NCBI GenBank assembly: GCA_018649885.1
Contig: JABIHA010000076.1
Span: forward strand, 1 to 64,000
Length of the DNA: 64,000 nucleotides
From: Bacteriovoracaceae bacterium
GTDB taxonomy: Bacteria > Bdellovibrionota > Bacteriovoracia > Bacteriovoracales > Bacteriovoracaceae
Reading direction: 5' to 3'
Shown here: positions 47,058 through 64,000 of the stretch, piece by piece
Layout of the letters: every line of letters begins with the position of its first letter
Position numbering within the stretch: the first letter of the stretch is position 1
Made by a program: the position numbers and the translations under genes
The notes under the pieces: generated by a model
Told to the model about the DNA's origin: nothing
The model's input: only the letters and a program-made list of their open reading frames with translations
Database searches by the model: none

Positions 47058-47254
47058 AGCTTATGACCTTAGCTGCTTTGCGATTGGATTCAAAATATTG
47101 ATCCTACTCATTGACAGAACTTGGTTTGTTTAATTGCTTGAGTCTTTTACACCCTTCTTTTTTATTTTCATTACTTAATACCTTGTGTAATATATCTTGG
47201 ACAGCATAGAAATACCTATCCCGTTTAAATAACAAGCCTTTTAAGGGTGGAGTG

Positions 47255-47665: not shown

Positions 47666-47691
47666 AATTTGAATTTTGACCAGGATGAGGA

Positions 47692-48846
47692 ATGAATTCC
47701 ACAGTTGCTAATTATTTTTCTGAATTTGAAAGTTACCAAAAAATGGTGGATTGGTTATCTGGAATTGCAGGTTTTGATACTGCCACGCTTGTAATGGTCG
47801 TTGTTATCTCATTGATGGCTTTTATTGTTATTAATGCAATGATGCTTGTCGGGGGTCTTGGAACATATGCTGAAAGAAAAATTTCAGCCGATTTACAAGC
47901 AAGGATCGGACCAAACCGAGTTGGACCATATGGAATTCTACAGTTTTTAGCAGATGGCCTTAAGATGACGATGAAAGAAGATGTCACCCCTGCTAAGGCT
48001 GACAAAGTTCTTTTTAATCTCGCTCCTTTTTTGAGTTTATTTGGAATCTTTGGAACGTTAGCTGTTTTGCCAATAAGTAGCGGGCTTGCCTTGTCTCACT
48101 TGAATGTAGGCGTCTTTTTCTTAATTGCCATTTCCTCAATCGTTGGAATCGGGATTTTTCTCGGTGGTTATGCCTCTAATTCAAAATGGTCTATGTTGGG
48201 TGGAATGAGAGGGGCTTCTCAGATCGTAAGTTATGAAATACCAGTAACTCTTTCAGTTTTATCTATTGTTTTGCTCGCGGGATCTTTAAATTTTAAGGTA
48301 ATCGTTGGTGGCCAAACAGGTATGCCTACTGGCTGGTTTATATTCCATAATCCTTTTTCTTTTATGGCATTTTTTGTTTATTCAATTGCAGCCCTAGCTG
48401 AAGCTAACAGGGCTCCCTTTGATTTGCCAGAAGCCGAATCAGAATTGGTATCTGGTTACCATACTGAGTATACCGGAATGAAGTTCGGTATTTTTGCACT
48501 AGCTGAATATATAGAGGTCTTTGTCCTTGCTAGTGTTGCAGCGGCAATGTTCCTTGGTGGATACAATGTTCCTTTTCATTTAGGTGGAGACGGGATCATA
48601 GGCCAGGTCCTACAGCTTGGTGCATTTGTTACTAAGTCATTATTAATTTACTACGTAGTTATCTGGATAAGATGGACTTTTCCTCGGCTTAGGGCAGATC
48701 AGTTAATGGTAGTTTGCTGGAAGTACCTAACTCCTATTGCCATTTTTAATCTTGTTGGAAGTGCCGTGTGGCTATATGCCTTTAAAGGCCAGTCTATTTT
48801 ACAATTAGTGTTGCACTCAGGCGGATCATCTGCGGGTGGTCACTAA
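47692..48846 (+). CDS. nuoH: NADH-quinone oxidoreductase subunit H
   Basis: ERK..Q.RIGPNRVG, ADGLK, SYE, EANRAPFDLPEAESELVSG. Confidence 0.98.
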   Translation: MNSTVANYFSEFESYQKMVDWLSGIAGFDTATLVMVVVISLMAFIVINAMMLVGGLGTYAERKISADLQARIGPNRVGPYGILQFLADGLKMTMKEDVTPAKADKVLFNLAPFLSLFGIFGTLAVLPISSGLALSHLNVGVFFLIAISSIVGIGIFLGGYASNSKWSMLGGMRGASQIVSYEIPVTLSVLSIVLLAGSLNFKVIVGGQTGMPTGWFIFHNPFSFMAFFVYSIAALAEANRAPFDLPEAESELVSGYHTEYTGMKFGIFALAEYIEVFVLASVAAAMFLGGYNVPFHLGGDGIIGQVLQLGAFVTKSLLIYYVVIWIRWTFPRLRADQLMVVCWKYLTPIAIFNLVGSAVWLYAFKGQSILQLVLHSGGSSAGGH

Positions 48847-48866
48847 AGTGATGAGGGGTTAAGTAA

Positions 48867-49400
48867 ATGTTTCATAAAGTTTTGATAATTCTCTCTTCAG
48901 CGCTCACTGTTGCATCGGCAATTGGGGTTCTTGTAACAAAAGATATTGTGAGAGCATGTATATTTTTATTTTTTAGTTTGTTTGGTGTTGCCGGGATCTA
49001 CGCTTCACTTGGTGCAGACTTTGTCGCTGTTACTCAAATAATGGTTTATGTTGGTGGCGTTGTTATCTTGATGCTTTTTGCAGTGATGCTTACGGGTGGC
49101 CCCGGAAAAGAAAGTGCTGGTAGCAAGGGCTATTTGTTGATTCCAATGATGGGAAACAAAATCACCTTTGGTTTTGGAATCTTTTCGGGATTAGTTTTGC
49201 TTCTAACAATGGCAAAAATTACAAAGAGTGTAATTGCATCGGTAACGATATCTGAAGTAGAGGGCTTTGCTTCAACAGTAGAAAGAATTGGAAGCTTGCT
49301 AGTAAGCGAGCATGTATTAGCTTTTGAAATTTCGTCTATATTATTATTGGGAGCTCTCGTAGGAGCAGCGATGATAGCAAGACCTAGAAAGAATGTTTAG
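48867..49400 (+). CDS. nuoJ: NADH-quinone oxidoreductase subunit J
   Basis: QIMVYVGGVVILMLFAVML, FEISSILLL. Confidence 0.96.
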   Translation: MFHKVLIILSSALTVASAIGVLVTKDIVRACIFLFFSLFGVAGIYASLGADFVAVTQIMVYVGGVVILMLFAVMLTGGPGKESAGSKGYLLIPMMGNKITFGFGIFSGLVLLLTMAKITKSVIASVTISEVEGFASTVERIGSLLVSEHVLAFEISSILLLGALVGAAMIARPRKNV

Positions 49401-49413
49401 GTAAGAGGGTAAG

Positions 49414-49719
49414 ATGTTTGGACTGGCCTGGTATTTAGGAATTGGATTTGTTTTATTTTGCACTGGAATAACAGTGATGATTGCAAGGAAGAGTATCGTT
49501 GCAATACTAATCGGAATTGAGTTAATTCTAAATGGAGCGGCCATAAACTTTGTGGCTTACTCTAAATTTGTTACTCAAGATCTTGATGGTCACATTTTTC
49601 CACTCTTTATAATAATCGTGGCAGCAGCTGAGGCAGCTGTCGGTCTTGCAATTGTAATTAGATTTTATCAAATTCGAGAAACGATTCATATTGATGAAGC
49701 AACTCAATTACAAAGTTAG
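49414..49719 (+). CDS. nuoK: NADH-quinone oxidoreductase subunit K
   Basis: IELILN and VAAAEAAVGLA with both conserved Glu residues. Confidence 0.97.
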   Translation: MFGLAWYLGIGFVLFCTGITVMIARKSIVAILIGIELILNGAAINFVAYSKFVTQDLDGHIFPLFIIIVAAAEAAVGLAIVIRFYQIRETIHIDEATQLQS

Positions 49720-49737
49720 GGTGAGGTAGAAAATATT

Positions 49738-51921
49738 ATGGATTATACAATTGGTACTGTCGCCCCTATTCTCTTGTTTCCTTTAGCAGCATTTGTAATT
49801 AATGCATTTATTGGAAGAAAATTGCCCAGACAGGGTGATTGGGTTTCAATTATAGGAATACTTCTTTCTTTTGGTTGGTCTGCAAGAATTTTTAACGATT
49901 TTGTCTTTGGTCACTATTCTTCTGATTATTATGTTCACAAAGTTTTTACATGGATTGATTTATCTTATGGTGATTTTCCGTTTCAAATAGATCTTGGAAT
50001 TTATATCGATAATATGACTGCCATGATGCTCTTGATGGTAAGTGGCGTTGCTGCTTTAATTCATATCTTTTCATCTTTTTACATGAAAGGTGATCCTCGC
50101 TACGGCAGATTTTTTACATATTTGTCTCTGTTTACAACGGGGATGCTTGGCCTCGTATTATCTGAAAATTTACTTTCAGTTTTTATCTTTTGGGAATTGA
50201 TGGGATTTTGTTCATACTCCCTTATTGGTTTTTACTATGAAAAAGAGGAGGCGGGTAACGCTTCCATGAAAGCATTTATGACCACTAGGGTAGGGGACGT
50301 CTGTTTCTTGCTCGCGATTCTTGGAATTTGGTCAGTAGTTGGAAGTGTTAGCTTTGTCGATATATACAACCACTTAGCATCTGGAGCCTTTGAAGGACAA
50401 GTTGCGATACTGGGAATACCACTAGCAAGCTTTTGTGCTTTTATGATTTTTGCAGGAACAATTGGAAAGTCCGCACAATTTCCACTTCAGGTTTGGCTAC
50501 CCGATGCCATGATGGGCCCTACACCATGTTCGGCACTAATTCATGCAGCTACAATGGTTGCAGCCGGAGTTTATCTTTCACTAAGAATGTATCCACTAAT
50601 GGAGGCGGGTCATTTGACGACCTTCATCGCCTATATTGGTGCCATAACTGCCTTTGGCGCAGCAACGATTGCTCTGATACAAACAGATATAAAAGCAGTG
50701 CTGGCCTATTCAACAATTTCTCAGCTTGGTTATATGGTTTTGGGGATTGGGGTTGGCTCATACAATGCAGCCTTTATGCATTTGATCACACATGCTGTTT
50801 TTAAAGCATGTCTGTTTTTATCGGCTGGATCAGTTATTCACTCACTACACGATCACCATACTCATGGTCATGTTCAAGAAATGCCTCGAATGGGCGGACT
50901 TAGAAAGAAAATGCCATATACTTTTCTTGCAATGGCCTGCTGTACGCTAGCGATTTCTGGCGTGCCATTTTTCTCAGGATTTGTCTCAAAGGATAGAATT
51001 TTAGGAGATGCACTTTATTGGGGGATCACAGGACACCATGCCCATTGGTATCAAGCCATTCCACCCATATTAGGATTTGCAGCTGCATTCTTAACAGCTT
51101 TTTATATGTGCAGAATGATGTTCTTAACATTTTTTGGAGAGCCAAGAGATAAAGAGCTTTATGAGCACTGTCATAAAGAGAAACTGTCATTAAATAGAAA
51201 TATACCTCTACTCTTACTTGCTGTTTTTACACTTGGGGTTTGGTACTCGGGTTCTCTCACTGGCCAAGGCAAAGTTAAAGTCGCAGGTGATAGATATGAA
51301 TGGTTTTCAACTCTAATTGAAAAGCCTAATACTTCTAATTTTAGAGAGTACACAAAAGAGCCCTTTGGACTAAAAGACACTAGGGGAACTGTTCACTTTG
51401 AAAAATCTCACTATGATCCATCACACGGACTTAGTGAAGAAGAGGCTCATCATGTGCATACTGCTCACAATATTGGTGCTGGGCTATCTATCTTGGTTGC
51501 ATTCCTTGGAATATTCATAGCCTTTCTAATGTATATAAGAAAATCAATGGATCCGGGATTTTGGGTTCGAACATTCCATCGTTGGAATAAGGCACTAAAG
51601 GAAAAATATTATTTCGATCATCTTTATATTGATGTATTGATACAAAAAGTATTATTGACTGTGAACCGTTTGCTCGCAGCATTTGATATGGGTGTTTACG
51701 ACCGCTTTGCCATTGATGGTATGGCTTCCGTAAACAGGTGGCTGTATAAGGCGGCAAACTTTTTTGATAATTTTATTGTCGATAATTCAGTAGATCTTAC
51801 TGGTGTGTCCGTGAAGTTTTTAAATGTAGCTTCAAGAACGGTTCAGTCAGGAAAGGTTCAGTTCTATTTTATGGTACTGATACTTGCTGTAAGTTTTTAT
51901 ATATTAAAAATTAGCTTTTAA
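49738..51921 (+). CDS. nuoL: NADH-quinone oxidoreductase subunit L
   Basis: FWE, KAF..RVGD, GKSAQFP, WLPDAM, HAATMV, HAVFKA, SKD. Confidence 0.98.
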   Translation: MDYTIGTVAPILLFPLAAFVINAFIGRKLPRQGDWVSIIGILLSFGWSARIFNDFVFGHYSSDYYVHKVFTWIDLSYGDFPFQIDLGIYIDNMTAMMLLMVSGVAALIHIFSSFYMKGDPRYGRFFTYLSLFTTGMLGLVLSENLLSVFIFWELMGFCSYSLIGFYYEKEEAGNASMKAFMTTRVGDVCFLLAILGIWSVVGSVSFVDIYNHLASGAFEGQVAILGIPLASFCAFMIFAGTIGKSAQFPLQVWLPDAMMGPTPCSALIHAATMVAAGVYLSLRMYPLMEAGHLTTFIAYIGAITAFGAATIALIQTDIKAVLAYSTISQLGYMVLGIGVGSYNAAFMHLITHAVFKACLFLSAGSVIHSLHDHHTHGHVQEMPRMGGLRKKMPYTFLAMACCTLAISGVPFFSGFVSKDRILGDALYWGITGHHAHWYQAIPPILGFAAAFLTAFYMCRMMFLTFFGEPRDKELYEHCHKEKLSLNRNIPLLLLAVFTLGVWYSGSLTGQGKVKVAGDRYEWFSTLIEKPNTSNFREYTKEPFGLKDTRGTVHFEKSHYDPSHGLSEEEAHHVHTAHNIGAGLSILVAFLGIFIAFLMYIRKSMDPGFWVRTFHRWNKALKEKYYFDHLYIDVLIQKVLLTVNRLLAAFDMGVYDRFAIDGMASVNRWLYKAANFFDNFIVDNSVDLTGVSVKFLNVASRTVQSGKVQFYFMVLILAVSFYILKISF

Positions 51922-51942
51922 TTAAATGATAAGGAGTTGGTC

Positions 51943-53460
51943 TTGGAGAATTTATTAAGCTGTATTTTGTGGCTTCCTGTAGTTGGAATCGTAGCCGTAC
52001 TATGCACGCCAAAAGGAAAGGACAACGCTGTAAGGTGGATATCACTTGCAGTGACAACCATTACTTTTGTATTGACTCTCGTTTTATACTGTAATTTTGA
52101 TACCAGCATGTCTGAGATGCAATTTGCCATAAAAGTCCCTTGGATTAAGGCCTTTCACATCTTTTATAGTCTGGGTGTAGATGGAATATCTCTTCCAATG
52201 ATTATATTAACGAGCCTCTTATTTGCTATTTGTATAATGAGCTCATGGACAATTACCAAATCAGTGAAGGGTTACTTTGCACTTCTTTTAATGCTTGAGT
52301 CATCTGTTTTTGGTGTATTCATGTCACTGGATTTTTTCCTCTTTTATGTATATTGGGAAATTATGCTTCTGCCTATGTTCTTTCTTATCGCTGTATGGGG
52401 TGGAGAGAATAGGGAATATGCTGCGATTAAGTTCTTTCTCTATACTTTTTTTGGATCAATTTTAATGCTTGTTGGTATGGTTGCTCTTTATTATGTAACA
52501 GGTCAGTCTAGCTCTTCATTTGATATTTTGGCCCTGCAGGGAGGAAATTTTACAAACGAGATGGTTAGTATTTTTGGATATGACTTTCACTTTAATAAAT
52601 TATTCTTTTGGTTCATGTTTATTGGCTTTGCTATCAAGGTGCCAGTGTTCCCTTTTCACACTTGGCTTCCGCACGCACACGTCCAGGCGCCAACTGCTGT
52701 TTCAGTCATCCTGGCAGGGGTGCTGTTAAAAATGGGAACCTATGGATTTTTAAGAATCAGCTTTCCCATTTTCCCTGAGGCCAGTGTTCATTACTCAACT
52801 GCAATCGCAGTACTCGGAGTGGTGAATGTTATCTATGGTGCGATGTGCGCGATGGCCCAGACAGATGTTAAAAAACTTATTGCATATTCATCGGTGTCCC
52901 ACATGGGTTTTGTTATGTTGGGGCTTGCGGCCATGACTGTTCAAGGTATGAACGGAGCAGTTCTTCAGATGTTTAACCACGGAACATCTACTGCAATGAT
53001 GTTCCTACTAGTAGGGATTTTATATGAAAGATCTCACCACAGGTGGATTATCAGACCAGATGGAACAAAAGGTTTTGGCGGTTTATTCACTCAATTACCT
53101 AATTATTCAATAATCTTTATTATTGGTATGTTTGCCTCTCTTGGTCTTCCTGGATTGTCTGGATTTATCTCAGAAGCCTTAATCTTTTTAGGTATCTACG
53201 AAAGATTTACAACAATTACAGTTATAGCCGTATTTGGACTTTTGCTTGGAGCCGCATATTTACTGTGGATGTTCAAAAGAATGTTCTTTGGTGAAGTGAT
53301 TGAAGAGTGTAAGAGCTACACTGATGTGAACGCACGAGAAATATTTTATATGCTGCCTCTTTGTATTGCAGTTGTTGTATTTGGTGTTTACCCAACCCCG
53401 ATATTGGATATTATGAGAGCTTCGGTTGGTGAGCTGGTTACACTACTTTCTAGATTTTAA
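51943..53460 (+). CDS. nuoM: NADH-quinone oxidoreductase subunit M
   Basis: LGVDGIS, YWE, KVPVFPFHTWLP, LLKMG, GLPGLSGFISE; the TTG at 51943 fits SD AGGAG. Confidence 0.98.
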   Translation: MENLLSCILWLPVVGIVAVLCTPKGKDNAVRWISLAVTTITFVLTLVLYCNFDTSMSEMQFAIKVPWIKAFHIFYSLGVDGISLPMIILTSLLFAICIMSSWTITKSVKGYFALLLMLESSVFGVFMSLDFFLFYVYWEIMLLPMFFLIAVWGGENREYAAIKFFLYTFFGSILMLVGMVALYYVTGQSSSSFDILALQGGNFTNEMVSIFGYDFHFNKLFFWFMFIGFAIKVPVFPFHTWLPHAHVQAPTAVSVILAGVLLKMGTYGFLRISFPIFPEASVHYSTAIAVLGVVNVIYGAMCAMAQTDVKKLIAYSSVSHMGFVMLGLAAMTVQGMNGAVLQMFNHGTSTAMMFLLVGILYERSHHRWIIRPDGTKGFGGLFTQLPNYSIIFIIGMFASLGLPGLSGFISEALIFLGIYERFTTITVIAVFGLLLGAAYLLWMFKRMFFGEVIEECKSYTDVNAREIFYMLPLCIAVVVFGVYPTPILDIMRASVGELVTLLSRF

Positions 53461-53478
53461 TAAACGAAGGAAATACCT

Positions 53479-54945
53479 GTGATGTTAAAACTTCTTTCAA
53501 ATATGTCTTTTTATGTACCAGAGTTGGTATGTATTTTGACCATGTGTACACTGCTGTTTATGGAAGCATTTTATGGCGACAAGTCTAAAGGCAGAACTTT
53601 CGTTTATATCACGGCCATGATTGGCCTTGCTATAGCCTTTGCAGTGCTCGCTTGTTCTGTTGGAAATAAGCCTCAGCCAATTTTTTACAATGCACTCATA
53701 ATTGATTCATTTAGCACAGTGATGAAAATGATTATGGTTCTTGGAACATTGGGTGTTTTTTATCTATGCTCTCAATCAACTGACATATATGAAGATTTGA
53801 AAACAGAGTTTCTTGTTATGACTATTGGTGTGCTTATTGGGGGGATGCTTTTATCATCGGCCAATAACTTACTCACGGTTTATCTAGGAATTGAAACTCT
53901 CTCTATACTGTCTTATGTTCTTGCAGCTTTTAAGAAAAGAGACGGCCGCTCATCTGAGGCTGGTTTAAAATATGTTCTCTATGGCGGGATTACTGCAGGG
54001 GTAATGCTTTACGGAATTAGTCATATCTATGGTATTTTGGGAACAATTCAATTTTCTGAAATTCCAGGATTGATTAAGGCCTTAGATTCTCAGCAAACAC
54101 TTCTGCTCTTGCCTGCATTTGTATTATTCTTCGTTGGCATTGGTTACAAAATTGCTTGTGTGCCTTTCCATATGTGGAGTCCGGATGTTTATGAGGGCTC
54201 TCCTGTTCCTGTAACAACTTTTTTCTCTATCGTGCCAAAGCTTGCCGGAATGGCAGTTTTGATTCGAGTGACTTTAGTTTTTTTCAATCACGATGGAGTT
54301 TTACAGACGGCTTGGGTTGGCTTGATGCAAGTTCTTGCTGCTCTTACAATGTTTGTCGGTAATATTACTGCAATAAATCAAAAGTCAGTAAAAAGAATGC
54401 TGGCATTTTCATCCATTGCTCACGCTGGTTTTATGATGTGCGGGATATTGGTTTTGAATGCAACAGGTATTCGGGCCATTTTGTTCTACGGAGCGACATA
54501 TCTATTTATGACCTTGCTGGCTTTCTATGTGACCTCATTTATTATTGATAAATATGGCACTGATGATCACGAGCGCTTTACTGGACTTATTTCCAAGCAT
54601 CCCCTTGTTGCAATTAGTATGTCAGTGGCCCTTTTCTCCCTGGCGGGACTTCCTCCTTTCAGTGGCTTCATAGCGAAATTTAATATTCTTTCTGCCCTTA
54701 TTGAATCAGAGAAATATAGTCTTGCTCTAATCGCTGTGTTGAATTCGGTAATTTCACTTTATTACTACCTTCGGTTGGTTAAAACCATGTGTGTGAATGA
54801 AGCTGACAGTAGTGAGCCTATCGAGGGCCTGGGATTTGTAAATCAAGCAGTAATAGTAGGGCTTGGTATTCCGGTAATACTGCTAGGCGTTTTCTGGGAA
54901 AAGCTAATGCTCGTTGCTGATGGTGCAAAGATTTTTATTCAATAA
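53479..54945 (+). CDS. nuoN: NADH-quinone oxidoreductase subunit N
   Basis: GIE, EAGLKY, KIACVPFHMWSPDVYEGSP, PK, SLAGLPPFSGFIAK. Confidence 0.98.
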   Translation: MMLKLLSNMSFYVPELVCILTMCTLLFMEAFYGDKSKGRTFVYITAMIGLAIAFAVLACSVGNKPQPIFYNALIIDSFSTVMKMIMVLGTLGVFYLCSQSTDIYEDLKTEFLVMTIGVLIGGMLLSSANNLLTVYLGIETLSILSYVLAAFKKRDGRSSEAGLKYVLYGGITAGVMLYGISHIYGILGTIQFSEIPGLIKALDSQQTLLLLPAFVLFFVGIGYKIACVPFHMWSPDVYEGSPVPVTTFFSIVPKLAGMAVLIRVTLVFFNHDGVLQTAWVGLMQVLAALTMFVGNITAINQKSVKRMLAFSSIAHAGFMMCGILVLNATGIRAILFYGATYLFMTLLAFYVTSFIIDKYGTDDHERFTGLISKHPLVAISMSVALFSLAGLPPFSGFIAKFNILSALIESEKYSLALIAVLNSVISLYYYLRLVKTMCVNEADSSEPIEGLGFVNQAVIVGLGIPVILLGVFWEKLMLVADGAKIFIQ

Positions 54946-55006: not shown

Positions 55007-55291
55007 TTGTCTGTTTTAACATTATTATTTATTGCTATTGTCCTGGTGATTTTGGCTGACCTAATCCTGGGTTCATTCACAGAGAAAAGTCTTGCGGCCA
55101 ATTCTGTTTTTTTTTCCAAGAGGTCTTTCTCAACTAGCCTAGGTAGTATTTTAACTGCCCTTCTGAGGCTTTCTCTTTTTGCTGTGATAGTATCGGTTTA
55201 TCTTTTCGGAGGGTTAAAAATAGAACCAAGCCAGCTTGTTTTGCTTTTTGGAATTTTGGCAATGATTTTATTTTTGATGCATAGAGGATAG
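55007..55291 (+). CDS. divergent NuoA-like membrane protein (3 TM)
   Basis: TM-loop-TM-TM topology, size and first position in the cassette. Lacks YECG and FDVE. Confidence 0.5.
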   Translation: MSVLTLLFIAIVLVILADLILGSFTEKSLAANSVFFSKRSFSTSLGSILTALLRLSLFAVIVSVYLFGGLKIEPSQLVLLFGILAMILFLMHRG

Positions 55292-55294
55292 TAA

Positions 55295-56140
55295 ATGGTT
55301 ATTGCGGGAACACTGTCTTTTTTATTAGTAAATATTTTGGCAGCAATTTTTGGCTTATGCGATAGATTTCTATTTAATTCAAAAAATTTTGGTTTCGGTA
55401 GCGCTAGCTCAAATAAAATTACAAATAAAGAAAATTCAATATTTCTGCTGAGAAACAAAGCCAACTGGGAAAAAATGCATCCCATTGTATTGATGTACAC
55501 TCATCTTTTAGTGCATTTCGTTCTGATTTTCACATTACTTGTCAGCTCGCAGGGATGGAATACCTATCTCTATTTGAGTATTGCGAGTCAAATTTTAGTA
55601 GAGGTTTTATTTTTGGCCTTTAGTTTTAAAGGGCAGGGACAAAGTATTTCAAAGCTTTGGGAATTGTCCGCAGTGACATTTAGCTATGGCGTTTTATATA
55701 TAGCACTTTTTTCATATCTAATGTTTTTTTACATAGAAAATATTGGCAATGTAGATAAGGTTTTGTGTAGCCTTTTCCTGGTAGTCTTAATTGGAATTGA
55801 GGATAAATTTTGGCGCAATTATTTGGGAACTATTAGCCCCTTTAAATATGAAAGTATGACTCAAAATTTAAAGTTAGTGCTAAAACTCTTTTTGGTAGCA
55901 ATTTCTGCAACAGCTCTACTTACACTGGATGGATCGGTTTTAGATCAATCAATTTCCAGTTTTTTAACACTAGGTAATATTGTTATTTCCACTATGCTTG
56001 TGGTTTTGTTTTTTCCTCTTATTTCGGTTGTTCACTTATGGGCCGATAAGATGAGTAGAAAAAATGCACTCGATCTCGCGAATTTAATTGCTTGGCCGGT
56101 GATATTTTTGGGCCTACTGATTGGAGGTCTCCTTGCATAG
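55295..56140 (+). CDS. divergent NuoH-like membrane protein
   Basis: About 8 TM; CDR aligns with AER, FSYG with VSYE; C-terminal VHLWADKM..WP aligns with IRWTFPRL..TP. Confidence 0.55.
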   Translation: MVIAGTLSFLLVNILAAIFGLCDRFLFNSKNFGFGSASSNKITNKENSIFLLRNKANWEKMHPIVLMYTHLLVHFVLIFTLLVSSQGWNTYLYLSIASQILVEVLFLAFSFKGQGQSISKLWELSAVTFSYGVLYIALFSYLMFFYIENIGNVDKVLCSLFLVVLIGIEDKFWRNYLGTISPFKYESMTQNLKLVLKLFLVAISATALLTLDGSVLDQSISSFLTLGNIVISTMLVVLFFPLISVVHLWADKMSRKNALDLANLIAWPVIFLGLLIGGLLA

Positions 56141-56594
56141 TATATTTTTAGAAGTAGCAATTTGGATATTTACAATTGTTTCTCTTTTGTATTTTTTATT
56201 AAATAAAAACTCAATTAATCAGATCAAATCACTACTCGTAGTCCTGCTTTCAATCGCAATCTTATTTGTTAGTGCAAAACAATATCAGGCATTGATTGTT
56301 TTTCTTTTTGTTAACTTGTTGGCCCTATTCTTAATAACCCTTTTCCACCTTAGTTTTGATGGATTTAAAGAAAAGGTGAAATTCTATAGGGGGATGAGGT
56401 TAGAGTCACTTATTAGTGTTGTGATTTGTTTAGGTCTACTTGGCCTATGTCTTCTTCTTTCAGAAAGATTTCCTGAGGATTACAACATAGATGTTTCAAC
56501 ATTAAGCTTAAAATTTGAATTAATAGAAATAGCACCAATTTTTCTTTTATCAATTATGGGAATGGGATTAGTAGTCAAACATGGAAGTAAGTAG
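56133..56594 (+). CDS. divergent NuoJ-like membrane protein
   Basis: Ungapped by-eye alignment of about 59 N-terminal residues to local NuoJ; FE retained near the last TM; SD GGAGG before the TTG at 56133. Confidence 0.65.
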   Translation: MHSIFLEVAIWIFTIVSLLYFLLNKNSINQIKSLLVVLLSIAILFVSAKQYQALIVFLFVNLLALFLITLFHLSFDGFKEKVKFYRGMRLESLISVVICLGLLGLCLLLSERFPEDYNIDVSTLSLKFELIEIAPIFLLSIMGMGLVVKHGSK

Positions 56595-56877
56595 CGAACT
56601 GACAATAGTGCGGTCATTCTGGGTTCTATATTTTGTAGGAATTGTAGGGTTTATTACAAAAAAAACTATTTCACAAAAATTGATGGCAGCTTTTTTAATA
56701 CTGCTCGCTAACTCGGCTTTATTGCTTTCAAATGTTGACAAGGCTCAATCTGGAAAAGAAGCATTTGTTTTTTCCATAATTTCAGTTGTGTCACTTTTAA
56801 CTCTTTTATTGTTTTACTTAATATCGAATAAAATATTGTTCAAATATAAAACCTTAGATTTGGATACTTTAGAATAG
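56581..56877 (+). CDS. divergent NuoK-like membrane protein
   Basis: VLYFVGIVGFITKKTISQKLMAAFLIL versus NuoK VLFCTGITVMIARKSIVAILIGIELIL; C-terminal KTLDLD versus ETIHID. Confidence 0.75.
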   Translation: MEVSSELTIVRSFWVLYFVGIVGFITKKTISQKLMAAFLILLANSALLLSNVDKAQSGKEAFVFSIISVVSLLTLLLFYLISNKILFKYKTLDLDTLE

Positions 56878-58509
56878 ATGATTATATTTTTATACTTTAC
56901 CCTATTTAATCTTATGAAAAGCCTTCTTACAAAACAGCGTTATTTGTTGTTTGGGTTTGGCATGTTTTTCTACGTTTTCTATTCAGCATGGTTAAATTTT
57001 GCAGGAGAAGTTAATTTAATAGGTTTTGATTCAATAGTGGGGGCAAGCTCACTTTGGAGTATTCAATCAATTTTGACAAGAAGTGATATCTTGCTTTTAA
57101 CGTTTGTTACAACTGTTCTTGGCCTCGTTGGAATTGGTTCCACAAATCGAAATTGGATTTTAAAAAGAGAAACACACTATCTGTTTCAGTTCTTACTTTT
57201 AGTATTTCTTATTGGCGCCAAAAATGTCTTGTTTGTACCAGTCGTTTTGGGTGCAAAAATTCTTGCAGATGAATGGAAAAAAGAAGATTTTGGTATTGGG
57301 GTAACGGATTGGATTTTAGCAATTTCACTTTTAGCAGTTTTAATTAGTGACAAAATGACTCTATTTGGTGAGATTCAGGTGGATGGTGTTAGCCGTGTAG
57401 TGTTGTATGCCATTTCAATTGTTTTTTCTCTGCACTCAGCAATCAAGGTATTTCTTGCCTCGCGAAACTTTACACATCGTCATATTGAAAGAGCCTTTTT
57501 TGATCTGATGGTTCTTCTGATTTGTCTTGGCAAATTATCAGCTGTTGATATTGCTGCTTATGGAGTGGCCTTTGATTTTATCGCCCTTGTATTTTTGGCG
57601 CTATCACTAGTTCAAGTTATGAGTTGGAAAAAAGGCGCAAAAAATACCTTTCAAAGGTTTGTCCTTCTAAAAGTTAGCCTTTATTTATTCTTTCTATTCT
57701 CCACGAGAAGTAGTGGTGTTACTCAGCTCTTTATAGGGGATATATTCTTTCTCTGTTCAGTAAATAGTCTTTTTTTCTTAAACAAGAAAGATCATCTGGC
57801 TTTTAAGGTGGTTCCATTCTTATTAACATTAGTATTTTTGGGAATACCTTTTGTTGGACTGACCTCTCTTGAAACCTTTTTCTATAAAGAGATGTTACTT
57901 TCTAAGAGTCTCACTTTAGGATTGATTGTATTGTTACTCAACTTATCTTCAAATCTATACTTTATTATTTTTATTAAGAAAAAAGCACTGGAGAGGCGAG
58001 ATCAAAAATTTGACAACAAAAATATCATCTTTGCAGTAATGCTACTCACTTTGAATATTGGGATGCTTCCAATGATTCAATACATTTCGGGAGTTAACTT
58101 TAGTTATTCAGAAAATCCGTGGGAAATAGTCGCAATCGTTTTCTTCTTGTTGCTGAAAGCCTTTTTCGTAGTGTATTTCTTAATTATACCGGCCCAATTT
58201 AACAAAGAAGTAAAAGGTGAGGGGATGCCACTGCTTGTCTTGGGTAAATTTAGATTAAAAAATGACTATGGTTTGGAGAAGAGATTATTCCCAATATATT
58301 ACCTATTCACCGCTTGTGCCAAAGCAATATCCTCGGCATTTGTGGTCTTTGAATTAGGAATTAGGCAGTTAGGAACTCTTTTTCTCGAGCTAACGGTACT
58401 AGCTGAGGGAAGAGGAAGCTATATTTTCAATAAGCAGCTTACATATATTTTATTAATTTTTTTATTTCTAATCCTTAGTTTAGCAAGTGGGATTAATTTA
58501 TGGGCCTAG
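56878..58509 (+). CDS. divergent NuoL-like antiporter-fold protein
   Basis: TLVFLGIPFVG..FFYKEMLL versus TLAISGVPFFSGFVSKDRIL; C-terminal amphipathic helix plus terminal TM. Confidence 0.65.
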   Translation: MIIFLYFTLFNLMKSLLTKQRYLLFGFGMFFYVFYSAWLNFAGEVNLIGFDSIVGASSLWSIQSILTRSDILLLTFVTTVLGLVGIGSTNRNWILKRETHYLFQFLLLVFLIGAKNVLFVPVVLGAKILADEWKKEDFGIGVTDWILAISLLAVLISDKMTLFGEIQVDGVSRVVLYAISIVFSLHSAIKVFLASRNFTHRHIERAFFDLMVLLICLGKLSAVDIAAYGVAFDFIALVFLALSLVQVMSWKKGAKNTFQRFVLLKVSLYLFFLFSTRSSGVTQLFIGDIFFLCSVNSLFFLNKKDHLAFKVVPFLLTLVFLGIPFVGLTSLETFFYKEMLLSKSLTLGLIVLLLNLSSNLYFIIFIKKKALERRDQKFDNKNIIFAVMLLTLNIGMLPMIQYISGVNFSYSENPWEIVAIVFFLLLKAFFVVYFLIIPAQFNKEVKGEGMPLLVLGKFRLKNDYGLEKRLFPIYYLFTACAKAISSAFVVFELGIRQLGTLFLELTVLAEGRGSYIFNKQLTYILLIFLFLILSLASGINLWA

Positions 58510-59633
58510 GTTGGTTTAGTATATTTTTACTGGTCATAGTGAGCGGGATGTCTTTTTTAAAAAGAAAAAGTACCGTTGGGCTAATAGTTTCACAGGGCCT
58601 AATTTTAACACTAGGAGCATCTCTTTTGATTGGATCGGTATGGAACATTGATCTTGCAACGGGGTTGATCCTTCTTGCTGGAGCACAGGTCTTCTCATAT
58701 TCAATTAATCGCATGTTGGATGTTGAACAAAAATTGTTATCACTGTTACAATTTACTCTTCTTTTACTTCTATCCTCCTCACAAATTTTTTTACATAGCT
58801 TATTATTATATGAAGGGGTTCTCATTTTTCTTTTATATGGAGCCCTAGGGAGTGCTGCGAGTTCTAATTTAAGTATTTTACGTAGATATGCATTTTTTCA
58901 AGGTTTGTTGATATTCCTTGGAACAATAGTGCAGTTTTACATGCAGGAGAAAATTTCTTCTGGCGCTAGTCTTTCACAGAGTGAGTCAGGTGCAAATGCT
59001 CTTAGCTATTTAATGCTATTTTGTCCTCTTTGGATCCTCGGTATTGGGGTTGAGCGGGTTTTTTCGAATACAAGAGGTATCATTCAAGTTCATATTCTAA
59101 GTACAATTGTATTTTTACAATTAATTTTGCTTGGAAAAGTTAACATTGAATCTCTTTATTTTTATTCTCATGAGATTTTTTGGGCCATTCCATTTTTACT
59201 AATGGTGATATTTTCATTTTCTAGAATTTTTCTTGGGCTAAATTCATTTTATTCTGGAGTCAGAATATTTGTGGCCCTAATAGTATTATCTTATATATTT
59301 AGCCCACTTAAAATGAGAGTTGAGATCATGTCATACCTACCGTTTTGGGTGATAACATATTCTATGGCCACTATTTTCCTTGAGGAAATTTGGCATCAGC
59401 AGTTATTTGGGCCCTGGAGGGGAAAGTTAAAGTTATGTGTATTGGTAGTTCTAGTCGGGTTACCTATCACACCATTTTTTAATATTGTAAAACTATCATT
59501 TTATTTTACAAAAATTGATGCAATTAGACCTCTAGGGGTTTGTGTTTTAACAGGATGGATAATTGTTGTACTTGGGCTGGGTCTTGAGAGCATTTATGGA
59601 GTATATGCAGATGATAAAGAGATGAGGGTATAG
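58500..59633 (+). CDS. divergent NuoM-like antiporter-fold protein
   Basis: LLLYEGVLIFLLY versus YVYWEIMLLPMFF; LVGLPITPFF versus SLGLPGLSGF. Confidence 0.65.
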   Translation: MGLGWFSIFLLVIVSGMSFLKRKSTVGLIVSQGLILTLGASLLIGSVWNIDLATGLILLAGAQVFSYSINRMLDVEQKLLSLLQFTLLLLLSSSQIFLHSLLLYEGVLIFLLYGALGSAASSNLSILRRYAFFQGLLIFLGTIVQFYMQEKISSGASLSQSESGANALSYLMLFCPLWILGIGVERVFSNTRGIIQVHILSTIVFLQLILLGKVNIESLYFYSHEIFWAIPFLLMVIFSFSRIFLGLNSFYSGVRIFVALIVLSYIFSPLKMRVEIMSYLPFWVITYSMATIFLEEIWHQQLFGPWRGKLKLCVLVVLVGLPITPFFNIVKLSFYFTKIDAIRPLGVCVLTGWIIVVLGLGLESIYGVYADDKEMRV

Positions 59634-59635
59634 AG

Positions 59636-60838
59636 ATGCTACAGCTAGTATTTGCTATATGTGCACTAGTATTAATTGTTGAAAGGTACCAAGGTGTTGA
59701 TAGGATTCGCTTGGGCCTAAATGCCATTTTCTCTACGGCCTCATTTTTTATTTGTATTTATTCAATTTTTAGACCGGAGATATTTAATCTTCAGCTTGGG
59801 ATTAACTCATTTTTTATCACTGCGCTATTTGGAATGAGTGGTGTCTGTTTTTTAAGTCTTCTGATACAAAATAGTCGTCTGAGCCCATCTTTTTTAATTA
59901 TGATCACCTCATTTTTTTATTTCTTATTTTCATTTGATTCCATCATTCCTTTGTATATTTTATTGTCAATGATCTTACTCTTTAGATCCTCTCTTTATAT
60001 TACAGCAAAATCATACTCTCAAAAGCTGGTGATGAATACGGTGCTACTTGATTTACTTTCGTTTGTATTTTTGAGCATGTTTACAACCTTTTTTATTATT
60101 TCCACTAATAGTTTTAATATTTTTGATTTTCAAGTTGTCGGTAGAACAACCTTTATCATTTCTCTCATAAATCTTGTTCTAGCATCCTTGGTTGTACTAC
60201 GCTTGCCACCGTTTCATACTGGGATATTAAATTTATATCGAGTGAATAGTCACATTGTAAGTTTGGAATCTTTGATTGTTAGGCCTTTTTTGGGTCTGTT
60301 TTTCTTTAGAGTCGTGTCTAATATTTTAAGAGAGATTGACCCAGAGTATTTTGCCCTGATTCAAGATTCATTATTTATAGTAATGGCTGCATCACTATTT
60401 TTTAATTTTGTGATTTTCAATTGGAAGAAAAGCATTGAATCATTTTTATTTAATTCATTTAGTCAAAATGTCTTACTTCTTTATATGTTACTCATTGTAG
60501 GGAGTAACGATTTACAAAATGATTCTCTGTTTTTTATTATACCCATGGGGAGCCTTCTGCTTTTTATTGGATGGAATTCATATATTGGATATACCGCAAG
60601 TGATGAGTATCAAAATAAAGGAAGTGAGAGGCTAGGCTTTGTGTTCCTCTTCTATGCTAGCTTTGCACTTCAGCTATTTCTGCCATTTTGTTTTGATGTT
60701 ACAAGATCGTATATTTCGGAGCTTTCAATTGAAAAACTATTTGTTTTTAGTATCGCTGTGGCCATAAACAAGGCTGCTATAATTAGTAAGACCAATTTGT
60801 CGGCAAGAAGTGAAATGACTGCCAGGGTAAAGAGTTGA
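59636..60838 (+). CDS. divergent NuoN-like antiporter-fold protein
   Basis: SFDSIIPLYILLS versus SANNLLTVYLGIE; LPPFHTGILNLY versus CVPFHMWSPDVY. Confidence 0.68.
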   Translation: MLQLVFAICALVLIVERYQGVDRIRLGLNAIFSTASFFICIYSIFRPEIFNLQLGINSFFITALFGMSGVCFLSLLIQNSRLSPSFLIMITSFFYFLFSFDSIIPLYILLSMILLFRSSLYITAKSYSQKLVMNTVLLDLLSFVFLSMFTTFFIISTNSFNIFDFQVVGRTTFIISLINLVLASLVVLRLPPFHTGILNLYRVNSHIVSLESLIVRPFLGLFFFRVVSNILREIDPEYFALIQDSLFIVMAASLFFNFVIFNWKKSIESFLFNSFSQNVLLLYMLLIVGSNDLQNDSLFFIIPMGSLLLFIGWNSYIGYTASDEYQNKGSERLGFVFLFYASFALQLFLPFCFDVTRSYISELSIEKLFVFSIAVAINKAAIISKTNLSARSEMTARVKS

Positions 60839-63800
60839 AAAAGTATAGAATTAAACTAGAAAATGGAAGAGTTATAGGTCCATTTGCCAAGGAGCAGGTA
60901 GGTGAGCTCTATATAAAAGGCCATATATATGGGCAGGAAGATTGTCAGGAGTTTCCCGCGGGGAAATGGCAAGATCTTGAATCATTTAGTGAGTTGTCTG
61001 AGCTTATTGTTGATATTATTGCAGGAAAAGTCTCTTTGGAGGTGTTGCAAGATAGGCAGAAGACTGTTTTTAAGAAAATATCAATTAAGAAAATTCATGA
61101 ACTTCCAGATTCACTAAAAAAAGAAGATAAGAAATTTGACTTGAAAGAGTTTGATTTTGATTCAGATGAAGAATTTAATTTTGAATCTGTTGATGAAAGT
61201 AAAAAAGATTCCGAACTAAATTTGAGCAAATTATTTGAAGCTCATAAAGACGATGAAACGACTCCTTCAAAAGAAATGGTAAATCCTCAGCATATTGAAG
61301 AAACTCATGTTGAAAAGGATATTGGTGAAATTCCGTCCTTTGATGATGAAGATGATGAATTGAATAAAACCGTTATTAATAAATCATTTGAAAACTTTCC
61401 GCTGAAACAAAACGAAGAGGAAAAGGTTGAAGAGGATACTCCAAGCATAATTGAAGAGGTGTTAGAAAAAGCTAAAACCGATGGGCCAAGTAGTGAGGAG
61501 CAAGATGATATTGCTCCCGCGGTCTCCGATACGGAAATTTCTTCAGATGATCATACTGTAGTGGGTTCGTTAAAAGACTTTAAGTCTGATTTAATTAAAA
61601 AGGCTTCAAAATTTGAAGCAAATTTAGTTAGAGTAGAAAAAAAAGATCGTGCTGAAAAGAAGGCAAAATCAGAGACACCTCAAATTGCACCGCCAGAAGA
61701 AAAAAAAGAAGTTAAGAAACAAAAACCGATTTTTAAGATGGCAGCACTTTTAGTCGTTCTTGCAGTTATATACCAAGTGTTTTTAGGTGGAGAAGATAAG
61801 CAGAAAAATTTTAAGCCGATTTTTCCCGACATTGCCTTTCCTTTCCCCTTTGAAAAACCAAACCCAAAGGCTGCTTTAAAATATTTGAGAGAAGGCCTAG
61901 AATTATATAAGTTGGGAAGCTATAAGCATAAGGCTTTAGCTGCTAGAAAATTCAAAGATTCTCTCGACAATTCTTTTGAAAAAAACAAAGCACTAGGACA
62001 TCTACTATTAACTTACGCAGAGTTGTTGGAAAATGCCAAAGATAGAGAAAAGGCGAATCTTAAAGTTTACCAATTAGTCGAAGTTTCTAAAGGTCGTGTT
62101 TTAACGGATCAAAAGATTGCCATGGGCTCTGCCATTTTTTTCTTAAAATTGGGAAGACCAAAAGCTGCGTTGAAATTTCTTAATGATTTTTTGAGAGTAA
62201 ATAGCAGCTCGGATATTAAGGCTGAAGACAAAGCTAAAATCTCGCTTAAGTTCTATGCTGTGTATCTAAGTGTTTTGATTGACCTTGGCGAAATGGCTGA
62301 CGCTAGAAAAAAGCTCAATGGCTTAGAGCCCATACCGGATGATAAAAAGTCACTTGAAGTATATTCATCAATTGTACAATTTCATTTGAAAAATGATGAT
62401 TACAATAAGGCAAAGGACGTAATTGAAAAGGGGCTGAAGTATTTCCCTTGGTCTGTAAGTTTAAGACTAACCCTGTGCCAAATTTATTCATATTTTGAAG
62501 AATATGATTTATTAAACTCAGAGTTAAAAAGAGTCAAAAAATTAAATTCGGAATTTTCAGTCGTTTACTATGCAAAATACCTTGAATTTATGGGGATTTT
62601 AAACGCTGTAAAGAAAGAATATAAAAATGCGGCAGTATTTTTTAAAGCAGCTCTAAAGTTAAGAGAAAATGATTCACTTAGATCAAAGCTCGCTCTACTA
62701 GAGGAATCCTCTGAAGCCAACTCAGATCCTGACATTGGAGCTCTTGTTAAAGAAAGTAAAGCACTTGATCTCATTAAGAAGTCGAAAGTAGAGGCATCTA
62801 ACGGAAATTTTAATAAGGCCCTGATACTAGCTCTTGAGGCCAGGGAGGGGTTCCCGAATTATGTGCCTGCGATTATTTACCTTTCCGACTTGCAAATTCG
62901 AAGAGGATTTTTTGACGATGCAATTGAGACTCTTATTAAAGCTAAGAAAGCGAGCAAGTTGAATCAGCATATTATTTATGCACTAGTAAGAGCTTACGCT
63001 GAGTCATTCAAGGTGTCCGAGGCGAAGAAGACGCTTTCGATTTTAAGAGAAACAGAACACCGAAATAGTTACCAATTTGCCAGCGCTCTTGGACATATTT
63101 ATTATAAATCAAACGAATTTCTACAGGCAGTTAAATGGCTCAGAGAAAGTACCAATCTAAACCCTCTTAATGAAAAAGATTTTTTTAAGCTGGGAAGCCT
63201 GTTCTTAAGATATAGACGATATGATAAGGCAAAAATACTTCTATGGAAGGCGATCAGTCTTGATCCTTCGAATATTAAATATCAAATCGCCTATAGTAGA
63301 ATTTTATATGAGCTTGATAGTGTTGATGTGGCGATCGGATACCTGCGGGATATTTTGAAGGAATATAACGATAGCGGCTTAATTCTATCTCAAATTTCGA
63401 TTTATTATTATAAAAGTGGTCAGGTTAAAGCCTTTGAACAGTATAAAGAAAGGGTCATGAAATCTCTACATATTGGAAAAGATCTTTTTGATTTTCTTAT
63501 TAAGGCATCTAAGCTTGAAGATAAAAAAGAAGAAATCATTAAAAATTATGAAGCCTATATAAAAGTTGAACCAGGAGATTTAGCTAAGCAACTCGAATTT
63601 GGAGAATACCTTCTTAGTGAGTCTGATCTGACCGCTGCCGAAAAAGTATTTACTAAAATTGAAACTAAGTTAAAAAGTTACCCGAAGGTGAAGTTTTTCT
63701 TGGCAAATATTAAACTGATGAGTGGTAAGGAAGATGAGGCCCTTATTTTAGCTCAAGAAGAGATAAAACTTAATCCAAATATTGAGTACGGCTATACACT

Positions 63801-64000
63801 TCTTGGTCATATTTATACAAAAAAAGAAGAATATAATAAGGCCTTAAAAAACTATAAACATGCTCAAACTATCAATCAGAACTCAGTCGATGCTCTTCTT
63901 GGTTTGGCCTGGATTAAATATCAGCAGAATCAGATTGAGTCGGCACTTGATCTTTATGAGAAATGTGCCAAGCTCGATCCAAATAATTCATTTGTCAGAA
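60835..64000 (+). CDS. large bitopic TPR protein with GYF_2-like N-terminus (3' end beyond the window, absent from the ORF track)
   Basis: Frame 1 appears open from TTG 60835 to the window end. N-terminus MKKYRIKLENGRVIGPFAKEQVGELYIKGHI..W, acidic linker, TM MAALLVVLAVIYQVFLG at about 61738-61790, then many TPR-like repeats (e.g. YTLLGHIY, ALLGLAWI, LDPNN). Confidence 0.85.
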   Translation, partial: MKKYRIKLENGRVIGPFAKEQVGELYIKGHIYGQEDCQEFPAGKWQDLESFSELSELIVDIIAGKVSLEVLQDRQKTVFKKISIKKIHELPDSLKKEDKKFDLKEFDFDSDEEFNFESVDESKKDSELNLSKLFEAHKDDETTPSKEMVNPQHIEETHVEKDIGEIPSFDDEDDELNKTVINKSFENFPLKQNEEEKVEEDTPSIIEEVLEKAKTDGPSSEEQDDIAPAVSDTEISSDDHTVVGSLKDFKSDLIKKASKFEANLVRVEKKDRAEKKAKSETPQIAPPEEKKEVKKQKPIFKMAALLVVLAVIYQVFLGGEDKQKNFKPIFPDIAFPFPFEKPNPKAALKYLREGLELYKLGSYKHKALAARKFKDSLDNSFEKNKALGHLLLTYAELLENAKDREKANLKVYQLVEVSKGRVLTDQKIAMGSAIFFLKLGRPKAALKFLNDFLRVNSSSDIKAEDKAKISLKFYAVYLSVLIDLGEMADARKKLNGLEPIPDDKKSLEVYSSIVQFHLKNDDYNKAKDVIEKGLKYFPWSVSLRLTLCQIYSYFEEYDLLNSELKRVKKLNSEFSVVYYAKYLEFMGILNAVKKEYKNAAVFFKAALKLRENDSLRSKLALLEESSEANSDPDIGALVKESKALDLIKKSKVEASNGNFNKALILALEAREGFPNYVPAIIYLSDLQIRRGFFDDAIETLIKAKKASKLNQHIIYALVRAYAESFKVSEAKKTLSILRETEHRNSYQFASALGHIYYKSNEFLQAVKWLRESTNLNPLNEKDFFKLGSLFLRYRRYDKAKILLWKAISLDPSNIKYQIAYSRILYELDSVDVAIGYLRDILKEYNDSGLILSQISIYYYKSGQVKAFEQYKERVMKSLHIGKDLFDFLIKASKLEDKKEEIIKNYEAYIKVEPGDLAKQLEFGEYLLSESDLTAAEKVFTKIETKLKSYPKVKFFLANIKLMSGKEDEALILAQEEIKLNPNIEYGYTLLGHIYTKKEEYNKALKNYKHAQTINQNSVDALLGLAWIKYQQNQIESALDLYEKCAKLDPNNSFVR

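Follow-up and report, generated by a model that had tools for sequence, protein, structure and literature searches.

A diverged second complex I membrane arm behind nuoN in a Bacteriovoracaceae genome, with seven intact genes and probable loss of most pump residues

What is encoded by seven tightly packed genes for hydrophobic proteins, placed directly behind the membrane-arm genes of complex I and repeating their order, when standard annotation recognizes none of them? The question is raised by contig JABIHA010000076.1 of a marine predatory bacterium of the Bacteriovoracaceae (assembly GCA_018649885.1), whose positions 1 to 64,000 were analyzed as one stretch of DNA (the window). The seven open reading frames (ORFs) at positions 55,007 to 60,838 are here called A', H', J', K', L', M' and N', after the nuo genes to which they correspond in position. 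Based on the collective evidence, their ancestor was very likely the membrane arm of another complex I, paralogous to the primary one. The fuller reading, which we consider probable at a lower level of assurance, is that of a complex I-like assembly with a diverged second arm that lacks its own NADH input and most of the pump residues.

An earlier, sequence-only reading of this DNA had described seven hydrophobic ORFs mirroring the order and sizes of nuoA-H-J-K-L-M-N. The description is confirmed, except that J' comprises 157 and not ~153 amino acids (aa). All genes lie on the + strand. A' (55007-55291, 94 aa, TTG start) is named as NuoA2 counterpart by position and size only, and H' (55295-56140, 281 aa) as NuoH2 counterpart by position and size. 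For J' (56121-56594, 157 aa), a NuoJ origin is suggested by an hhalign alignment to the NuoJ profile and a predicted contact with K'. The NuoK-derived K' (56581-56877, 98 aa), in which Glu36 is changed to Phe, is assigned from a sub-threshold PF00420 match, iteration of hidden Markov models (HMMs) and hhalign. Predicted folds from the ESM Atlas classify L' (56878-58509, 543 aa) as antiporter-like of the NuoL type and M' (58500-59633, 377 aa) as antiporter-like, and N' (59636-60838, 400 aa) is assigned as NuoN-derived from hhalign to the NuoN profile and a predicted contact with K'. The junctions from A'-H' to M'-N' measure +3, -20, -14, 0, -10 and +2 bases, so that the seven ORFs fill 5827 of the 5832 bases; 61 bp separate nuoN from A'. 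None of the ORFs contains an in-frame stop, whereas every one of their alternative frames has 4-45. At the off-frame stop rate of 0.082 per codon, the probability that all are open by chance corresponds to a log10 P of -72.7, and the longest open run is 543 codons as observed, against a mean of 93 and a maximum of 169 in 500 shuffles. The seven frames are thus open far beyond chance, which bears out the earlier statement that they are uninterrupted and abut or overlap. The cassette has a lower G+C content (0.31-0.36) than the primary nuo genes of this genome (0.37-0.42), and its subunits are 3-31% shorter than the primary copies. Since marine metagenome contigs carry the stretch, the arrangement is not an assembly artefact: matching contigs came from four marine runs of four studies, and the 32 metagenome pieces listed showed no differing letter, save for one 52-base piece in nuoM with 7 differences that derives from a contig of another organism.

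The origin of the cassette is revealed by the corresponding interval in relatives. A search with the primary NuoN found further NuoL/M/N-like genes directly behind nuoN in some of them, and the interval was then read in 53 genomes of the family, three of which ended at a contig edge, leaving 50 that were readable. An intact and recognizable A2-H2-J2-K2-L2-M2-N2 set follows nuoN in four of the 50 (genomes G018, G019, G008 and G070), with the orthologue of the TPR-repeat gene found downstream in the window coming directly after it. The synteny comparison proposed in the sequence-only reading thus showed a second cassette located exactly between nuoN and the TPR gene. The same intact cassette stands after nuoAHJKLMN in four of four genomes from other families of the phylum. 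A non-intact set of seven ORFs, with the size pattern seen here, occupies the site in 33 of the 50 genomes (two of these were listed with six ORFs after filtering, and one contig ended after the fifth ORF); sizes of 107/298/155/93/505/268/334 and 84/219/159/69/484/304/389 aa serve as examples. Truncated cassettes of 5, 4 or 1 ORFs were present in three genomes, and the cassette was absent from ten, where the TPR gene directly follows nuoN. Within the 33 non-intact sets, seven have at least one subunit recognizable by BLASTP, six more have one recognizable by iterative HMM search only, and 20 have none. In most genera of the family, and in this genome as well, the cassette is thus too diverged for ordinary sequence recognition, and its size is reduced by about 10-30%. 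The series is graded: in G138, six of the seven subunits are still recognized by BLASTP (e.g., H at 2e-64), and in G170 and G243 this applies to H, at 1e-12 to 1e-15. Carriers of an eroded cassette with a species or strain name include a Halobacteriovorax marinus record (L181) and Bacteriovorax sp. BSW11_IV (L165); two metagenome-assembled genomes of Bacteriovorax stolpii have no cassette. As in the window, the G+C content of the cassette is 4-10 points below that of the surroundings in seven relatives (0.24-0.31 compared to 0.31-0.35). It is because of the shared site with recognizable second cassettes, together with the graded intermediates, that we consider the descent from a second cassette very likely. 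The NuoN tree is too poorly resolved at depth for independent erosions to be counted.

Direct comparison of the seven proteins with Nuo families gave a signal for three of them. None passed the Pfam gathering threshold (PF00507, PF00146, PF00499, PF00420, PF00361), and none matched NCBIfam at E <= 0.01. The sole Pfam match was that of K' to PF00420, over the full length at E 7.6e-4, its 19.6 bits being below the 26.1 cut-off. Using hhalign, single sequences were compared with position-specific profiles in a 7 x 7 table, the profiles being built from primary, second-cassette and recognized intermediate sequences with this genome's own proteins left out. N' aligned with the NuoN profile at 94.3-94.8% (E 9.7e-8; residues 124-302 on 154-339), with its PFH motif kept and controls at <=0.9%. 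K' aligned with the NuoK profile at 84-87.0%, and J' with the NuoJ profile at 42.6-52.4% (residues 17-50 on 13-46), for which the reversed and off-position controls in the same row were <=2.3%. Off-position cells of the table were <=6.2%, except for N' against M at 16%, N and M being paralogues; reversed controls were <=4.9%. In an iterative HMM search seeded with primary and intact second-cassette sequences, K' was taken in at the first round and none of 360 reversed decoys was included. The best sequence match of K' in the PDB is NdhE, in register at E 0.56, and by BLASTP K' resembles NuoK at E 0.041 over 28 residues.

At the level of the family, profiles of the eroded subunits matched the canonical ones at 72% for A (NuoA) and 98.8% for H (NuoH). 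The eroded L and M profiles reached 0.0% and 0.9%, probably because MAFFT cannot align sequences so diverged. When this genome's ORFs were compared with the eroded-family profiles, only N' (20.9%) and J' (13.9%) gave a match, with one control at 5.8%. An all-versus-all phmmer search among eroded cassettes of eight genera returned four matches at E < 0.01, two of them from H to second-cassette H and two across positions. Canonical HMMs scored eroded proteins no better than reversed decoys, K' excepted, and Smith-Waterman comparison of forward with reversed sequences gave a faint excess only for H, J and L. For L', BLASTP found no match to NuoL, phmmer against 1.84 billion representative proteins returned only L' itself, no relative was found in 40 related genomes, and a scan of species genomes gave no close one. 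PDB sequence searches with N' and L' gave nothing relevant.

Predicted structures extend the assignment to L' and M'. The ESM Atlas model of L' (predicted TM-score, pTM, 0.56) matched ND5/NuoL clusters at TM-scores of 0.67-0.70 over 457-475 residues. That of M' (pTM 0.57) matched seven PF00361 clusters at 0.63-0.79 over 294-377 residues, six of them at 0.74-0.79 over 359-377 residues. Both proteins thus have PF00361-type predicted folds, and from these models of moderate confidence both are predicted to be antiporter-like; for N', the antiporter-like fold is supported by its profile alignment. The AF2 model of L', built on an alignment of positional orthologues, was poor (predicted local distance difference test, pLDDT, 54; pTM 0.41), with a long helix at 471-509 followed by a terminal transmembrane (TM) helix at 514-536. 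Its best Foldseek match had an E of 0.1, and antiporter-like chains of complex I or NDH-1 made up 28 of the 47 matches listed, at TM-scores of only 0.12-0.29; this is at most a weak hint that would add no weight. When N', K' and J' were predicted together, K' was docked between the other two chains at a score of 0.62, the best control scoring 0.42; the score is the confidence of the model itself. Of 157 solved complexes 116 attain this mark, as do 2 of 215 mismatched pairs. Contacts agreed between runs to at least 80%, and the pLDDT of the partners was at least 60. The predicted docking is consistent with a NuoN-NuoK-NuoJ-like arrangement, but it may reflect no more than likeness to solved complex I.

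The erosion affects most residues of the pump where these can be traced (numbering according to this genome's primary subunits). In a supported alignment, Glu36 of NuoK is Phe in K', as the sequence-only reading had proposed, and the Glu36 column is replaced in four of five alignable eroded K subunits. That reading had also given a hydrophobic residue for the second NuoK Glu; a hydrophobic stretch is indeed found at this column, but the alignment there is weak. In N', the column of the TM7 Lys is occupied by Val, with an Arg two residues away, and the PFH motif ascribed to this protein is recovered in the profile alignment. The placements of a 'YE' motif in M' and a 'YKE' motif in L' agree with hmmalign, but the alignments are not significant, and the same is true of two possible survivors in this genome, namely a Glu of the TM5 type (M') and a Lys of the TM12 type (L'). 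The least eroded set, that of G138, keeps 20 of 25 conserved charged columns in H, 10 of 23 in L, 10 of 21 in M, 5 of 15 in N, 1 of 3 in K and 2 of 5 in A. In general, such columns are largely lost wherever an alignment is possible, most columns of A', H', L' and M' of this genome being unalignable. Within genera, there are invariant charged residues in a hydrophobic context, exemplified by Glu163 and Lys250 of the N subunit in genus g10, whose spacing is NuoN-like; two N subunits show a Glu...Lys spacing like that of NuoN.

Selection on eroded genes was measured in close species pairs of other genera, the nearest NuoN to this lineage being 64% identical. In the closest pair (G015/G131), NuoN is 100% identical, the eroded subunits are 84-98% identical, and the ratio of nonsynonymous to synonymous divergence (dN/dS) is 0.02-0.14, far from the value near 1 that, according to the sequence-only reading, would have told against it. 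In G009/G114 (NuoN 96%), identities fall from 93% in A through K (81%), H (76%), N (72%) and J (69%) to 55% in L and 53% in M, with dN/dS of 0.04-0.14 where dS is finite; in G003/G120 and G003/G121 (NuoN 90-92%), they are 34% for L, 37-40% for M and 40-44% for N. We conclude that the eroded cassettes of close pairs in other genera are under purifying selection. Protein change is nevertheless several-fold faster than in NuoN, and because the eroded proteins are only 20-35% identical once NuoN reaches ~80%, genera cannot be linked by sequence. In four of five close pairs (NuoN 88-96%), L and M are least and A, H, J and K most conserved; L and M again rank last in the remaining, near-identical pair, where H (92%) is, however, below N (98%). 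The primary complex has M and L as its best conserved subunits (63-78% identity between this genome and family members), so the constraint is inverted in the eroded set.

As an observation apart, synonymous divergence between G015 and G131 (L047/L067) was 0.19 in nuoN, but 0.23-0.94 in the eroded genes beside it. The difference may stem from recombination, from a mutation rate that is raised locally or from constraint on the codon usage of nuoN.

A candidate set of peripheral subunits for the membrane arm exists on another contig. This genome has two NuoD-type genes. One is part of nuoB-C-D-I on contig C69, which is 56-89% identical to the genes of G018 and without E, F and G. On contig C8, a gene for a 509-aa protein precedes B2, a fused CD2 and I2, with no E, F or G beside them; the corresponding cluster of G018 and G019, both with an intact second cassette, has the order B2-CD2-E-F-G-I. 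B2, CD2 and I2 of this genome are only 30-37% identical to their G018 counterparts, and they keep the cysteines of B2 (4/4, cluster N2) and I2 (8/8). In complex I, the ligands for the clusters N2, N6a and N6b sit in the Q-module (NuoB, C, D, I). In CD2, the GPxHPxxHG loop motif is gone, although one His still aligns, and the DRLNY tyrosine motif reads QRVNS; the NuoD His and Tyr and the loop belong to the quinone site. Non-intact CD2 proteins were checked for the loop motif in 18 cases, and all have lost it together with the quinone-site Tyr. In a sample of 20 further genomes chosen for long contigs, plus this genome and G001, B2 occurred in 11 of 12 genomes that carry a seven-ORF cassette compared to none of 7 cassette-less ones, CD2 in 12 of 12 compared to 4 of 7, and I2 in 11 of 12 compared to 2 of 7. 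Both I2 cysteine motifs were found in 14 of 14 cassette-bearing and in neither of 2 cassette-less genomes. From this co-retention we infer that B2, CD2 and I2 may pair with the eroded cassette. Among the species searched, NuoF was detected in none from genera whose cassettes are eroded (g4 0/6, g10 0/4, g16 0/13, g55 0/10, g14 0/2, g43 0/3), compared to 25 of 29 species in the intact genus g20. The only NuoF-like gene of this genome (521 aa) lies together with a NuoG-like gene (896 aa) on contig C56 (L109:7974-12226), away from the other nuo genes; the pair may serve as the input module, for NADH, formate or hydrogen, of another enzyme or of the primary 11-subunit complex.

The mechanistic scenario thus suggested is one of ten proteins that would form a complex I-shaped particle of the 11-subunit type with a short Fe-S chain. 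The particle would no longer oxidize NADH through a module of its own, would no longer reduce quinone at the canonical pocket and would no longer pump protons in the canonical way. Selection would act mainly on fold and assembly, on the proximal A/H/J/K part and on the Fe-S module, the distal L and M drifting fastest. The present role might then be an uncoupled redox step with a new partner or a structural, scaffolding one. To the specific proposition that the proteins assemble, do not pump and serve a changed or reduced role we give even chances or slightly less. Bolder, and only a tentative suggestion, is a 'pseudo-complex I', a whole 11-subunit paralogue without NADH oxidation, canonical quinone reduction and proton pumping that is selected across dozens of genera of predatory bacteria for a new role of the assembled particle, with its curved membrane arm and short Fe-S wire; this role could be redox sensing, the organization of the inner membrane or of an envelope machine with the TPR protein, or electron delivery to a new acceptor. 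The broader claim of the sequence-only reading, of a second complex I membrane-arm cassette that is eroded and yet not made of pseudogenes, is supported by synteny, the graded series, the matches of K', N' and J', the predicted folds of L' and M', and dN/dS.

Several results weigh against this interpretation. A', H', L' and M' gave no hhalign signal with the profiles of their own positions (<=0.8%), and none of these four proteins, as found in this genome, resembles a Nuo subunit significantly in sequence. Structural support is lacking for A' and H': the AF2 model of H', derived from a 34-row alignment of positional orthologues, is poor (pLDDT 59, pTM 0.37, 8 helices), and Foldseek against the PDB gave no match to it at E <= 0.001. 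The cassette is dispensable in many lineages, being truncated or lost in 13 of 50 genomes, and the Fe-S chain is not kept everywhere, as the cluster cysteines of B2 are lost in 4 of 15 genomes. The selection figures come from genera other than this lineage, and the metagenome contigs offered no variants in the stretch for comparison. Some ion-handling function may persist, considering the charges invariant within genera. Finally, assembly and loss of pumping are both inferred.

The main rival is a functionless, dying relic whose frames are kept open only indirectly, either because truncated polytopic proteins are harmful or because stops would lower expression of the translationally coupled TPR gene. 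Such a relic would explain why cassettes are truncated in three and absent in ten of 50 genomes, and it agrees with the lower G+C content here and in relatives, the lost charged residues, the shrunken subunits, the 4-bp overlap of N' with the TPR gene and the eroding F2/G2 remnants in G228 (see below). It does not fit the low dN/dS of the closest pair, which is far from neutral, or the co-retention of the cassette with B2 and with the cysteine motifs of I2. Seven frames have also stayed intact in the 33 non-intact cassettes despite AT-rich DNA with 0.08 off-frame stops per codon, with hydrophobicity and subunit sizes preserved, and the persistence of the TPR gene in ten cassette-less genomes implies that its expression does not need the cassette. 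We therefore regard the relic as unlikely, if still the most serious competitor.

Lower still, as quite improbable, we place a cassette that continues to translocate ions as pump, antiporter or channel via non-canonical residues, whether driven by B2/CD2/I2 with a new electron donor or acting as a passive, Mrp-like conduit. The antiporter-like predicted folds of L' and M' are what such a module would have, and so are the retained TM7 region of N' with its PFH motif, the possible Glu and Lys survivors of the non-significant M' and L' alignments, the charges invariant within genera, the two N subunits with NuoN-like spacing and the conserved Fe-S cysteines. The loss of Glu36 in K' and in most alignable eroded K subunits, the Val in the TM7 Lys column of N' and the loss of the quinone-site Tyr and loop motif in CD2 argue the other way; a working ion module is made less likely also by the pace of L and M, which change most rapidly although a functioning pump would be expected to conserve them. 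The last alternative, unrelated lineage-specific membrane proteins that stand behind nuoN in this size order by chance, could appeal to the failure of all seven to pass a Pfam or NCBIfam threshold, to the orphan status of L' among 1.84 billion representative proteins and to its want of BLASTP similarity to NuoL. It is contradicted by the location at the exact site of a recognizable second cassette, by the graded intermediates, by the matches of K', N' and J' to their own positions, by the PF00361-type predicted folds of L' and M' and by the predicted place of K' between N' and J', and is close to refuted.

Compared to known systems, the cassette resembles the canonical complex I arm of E. coli or Thermus thermophilus in its A-H-J-K-L-M-N order without I, the relative sizes, the profiles of K', N' and J', the folds predicted for L' and M', and the predicted position of K' between N' and J'. 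It differs in being below the Pfam gathering scores, in its shorter subunits, the change of Glu36 to Phe, the lost charged columns and the faster evolution. The 'Nuo11' type, cyanobacterial NDH-1 and Fpo are 11-subunit relatives of complex I without the NADH module. They share their inventory with the eroded set, in which A, H, J, K, L, M and N are joined by B, C-D and I and E/F/G are missing next to them; unlike the latter, which has lost the quinone pocket and pump residues and evolves fast, they are well conserved and have both. Mrp antiporters, MBH, MBS and formate hydrogenlyase (FHL) have membrane subunits like NuoL/M/N and NuoK, and MBH and MBS also have modules like NuoB/D/I. Publications on this group include PMC8165549, PMC7684303 and PMC7733839. 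The cassette is distinct from these systems in that it has the subunit set and gene order of complex I, with counterparts of NuoA, H and J, and lacks genes like MrpE/F/G; the aligned CD2 showed no [NiFe] cysteine motifs. The closest functional analogy may be cyanobacterial NDH-1MS/MS' with NdhD3/NdhF3, where, according to the available portions of PMC12435202 and bioRxiv 10.64898/2026.08.03.742399, paralogous antiporter-like subunits serve a non-standard task. There, only the distal subunits are swapped, they remain recognizable, and the role is in CO2 hydration, whereas here the whole arm is paralogous and eroded.

The nearest relative by ancestry is the second, split nuo set of Bdellovibrionota. 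As far as the accessible text of PMC13147790 goes, a nuoAHJKLMN cluster is conserved at one site in all Bdellovibrionota and there is a further nuo set, split in some genera, in which C and D are fused; 'split' Bdellovibrio nuo clusters are mentioned likewise in the accessible part of PMC4758237. To this second set belong the recognizable cassettes that G018, G019, G070 and G008 carry at the site studied here, and its peripheral B2, fused CD2, E, F, G and I are located elsewhere in the family genomes. The present case departs from it in that the cassette is unrecognizable to standard annotation, E/F/G are absent beside B2-CD2-I2, and quinone-site residues of CD2 are lost. Neither the tandem position behind nuoN nor the eroded form is mentioned in the accessible portions of the two papers, and a literature search, with subscription journals and supplements outside its reach, found no tandem second cassette that is eroded beyond recognition and yet intact. 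The remark in the sequence-only reading that no description was known consequently holds for the eroded form, but a second, split nuo cluster is in print in the portions cited.

Our study has importance in that complex I is among the most conserved of membrane enzymes, and a full paralogue of it has here lost nearly all recognizable sequence together with residues regarded as essential for coupling, while it still consists of seven intact membrane genes and is under purifying selection in many genera. The cassette may be a natural example of a large enzyme whose shape is preserved although its known functional parts disappear. The graded series of intact, eroded, truncated and lost cassettes constitutes a natural experiment that separates the requirements of fold and assembly from features needed for pumping only. 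It also exposes an annotation gap, for BLASTP and iterative HMM search leave all seven genes unrecognized in 20 of the 50 family genomes that were readable. The carriers in Halobacteriovorax and Bacteriovorax make particle formation and role testable where cultured strains exist.

The primary nuo block (47252-54945) is context for, and lies outside of, the eroded cassette. Its genes, all on the + strand and all with Pfam matches above the gathering score (E-values of 1e-24 to 3e-108), are nuoA (47252-47665), nuoH (47692-48846), nuoJ (48867-49400), nuoK (49414-49719), nuoL (49738-51921), nuoM (51937-53460) and nuoN (53479-54945). The Pfam annotation confirms the earlier statement that nuoI is omitted from this block. 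Orthologues of its membrane-arm proteins in genomes of the family are 46-79% identical. The gap between nuoN and A' has no terminator-like hairpin; it contains a promoter-like match, but promoter and terminator matches are no commoner than in shuffles. On the other side, N' overlaps by 4 bp the gene of the TPR-repeat protein (60835-63999, + strand; Pfam TPR families), which runs off the window after more than 1055 aa. An orthologue of it follows nuoN or the cassette in every readable family genome, including the 10 cassette-less ones, and since it is kept in the latter, the gene goes with the primary nuo block rather than the cassette. The protein has an acidic N-terminal region, a weak GYF-domain match (E 0.14) and a hydrophobic stretch near residue 300.

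The 509-aa protein (L100:6438-7967) encoded directly upstream of B2-CD2-I2 on contig C8 is 40-42% identical to its G018 counterpart and belongs to no Pfam or NCBIfam family. It was rejected as a marker of the second complex, as it occurs in 203 of 237 family genomes, cassette-less ones included. In G001, where the cassette is lost, a lone CD2-like gene (L104:8086-9654; 522 aa) with 25% identity to G018 CD2 was found, and neither B2 nor I2 was detected in the 18 kb around it. G228 (L121:5085-7492) has a diverged NuoF2 (369 aa, 26%) and NuoG2 (434 aa, 25%) between CD2 and I2; beside an unrecognizable membrane cassette, these remnants look like a snapshot of N-module decay. Some family genomes have yet another nuo operon, which is complete (A-B-C-D-E-F-G-H-I-J-K-L-M-N), is the third of its kind and has separate C and D genes; it is present in G017 (contig C5, L107), G199 (contig C1, L108) and G144 (contig C36, L111). 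This operon resembles the second set more closely than the primary one, and the presence of this 14-gene operon is why NuoF occurs in some cassette-less genomes. In two genomes of another family, G036 (L037:9689-12143) and G027 (L039:11664-14103), ~2.4 kb lie between A2 and H2.

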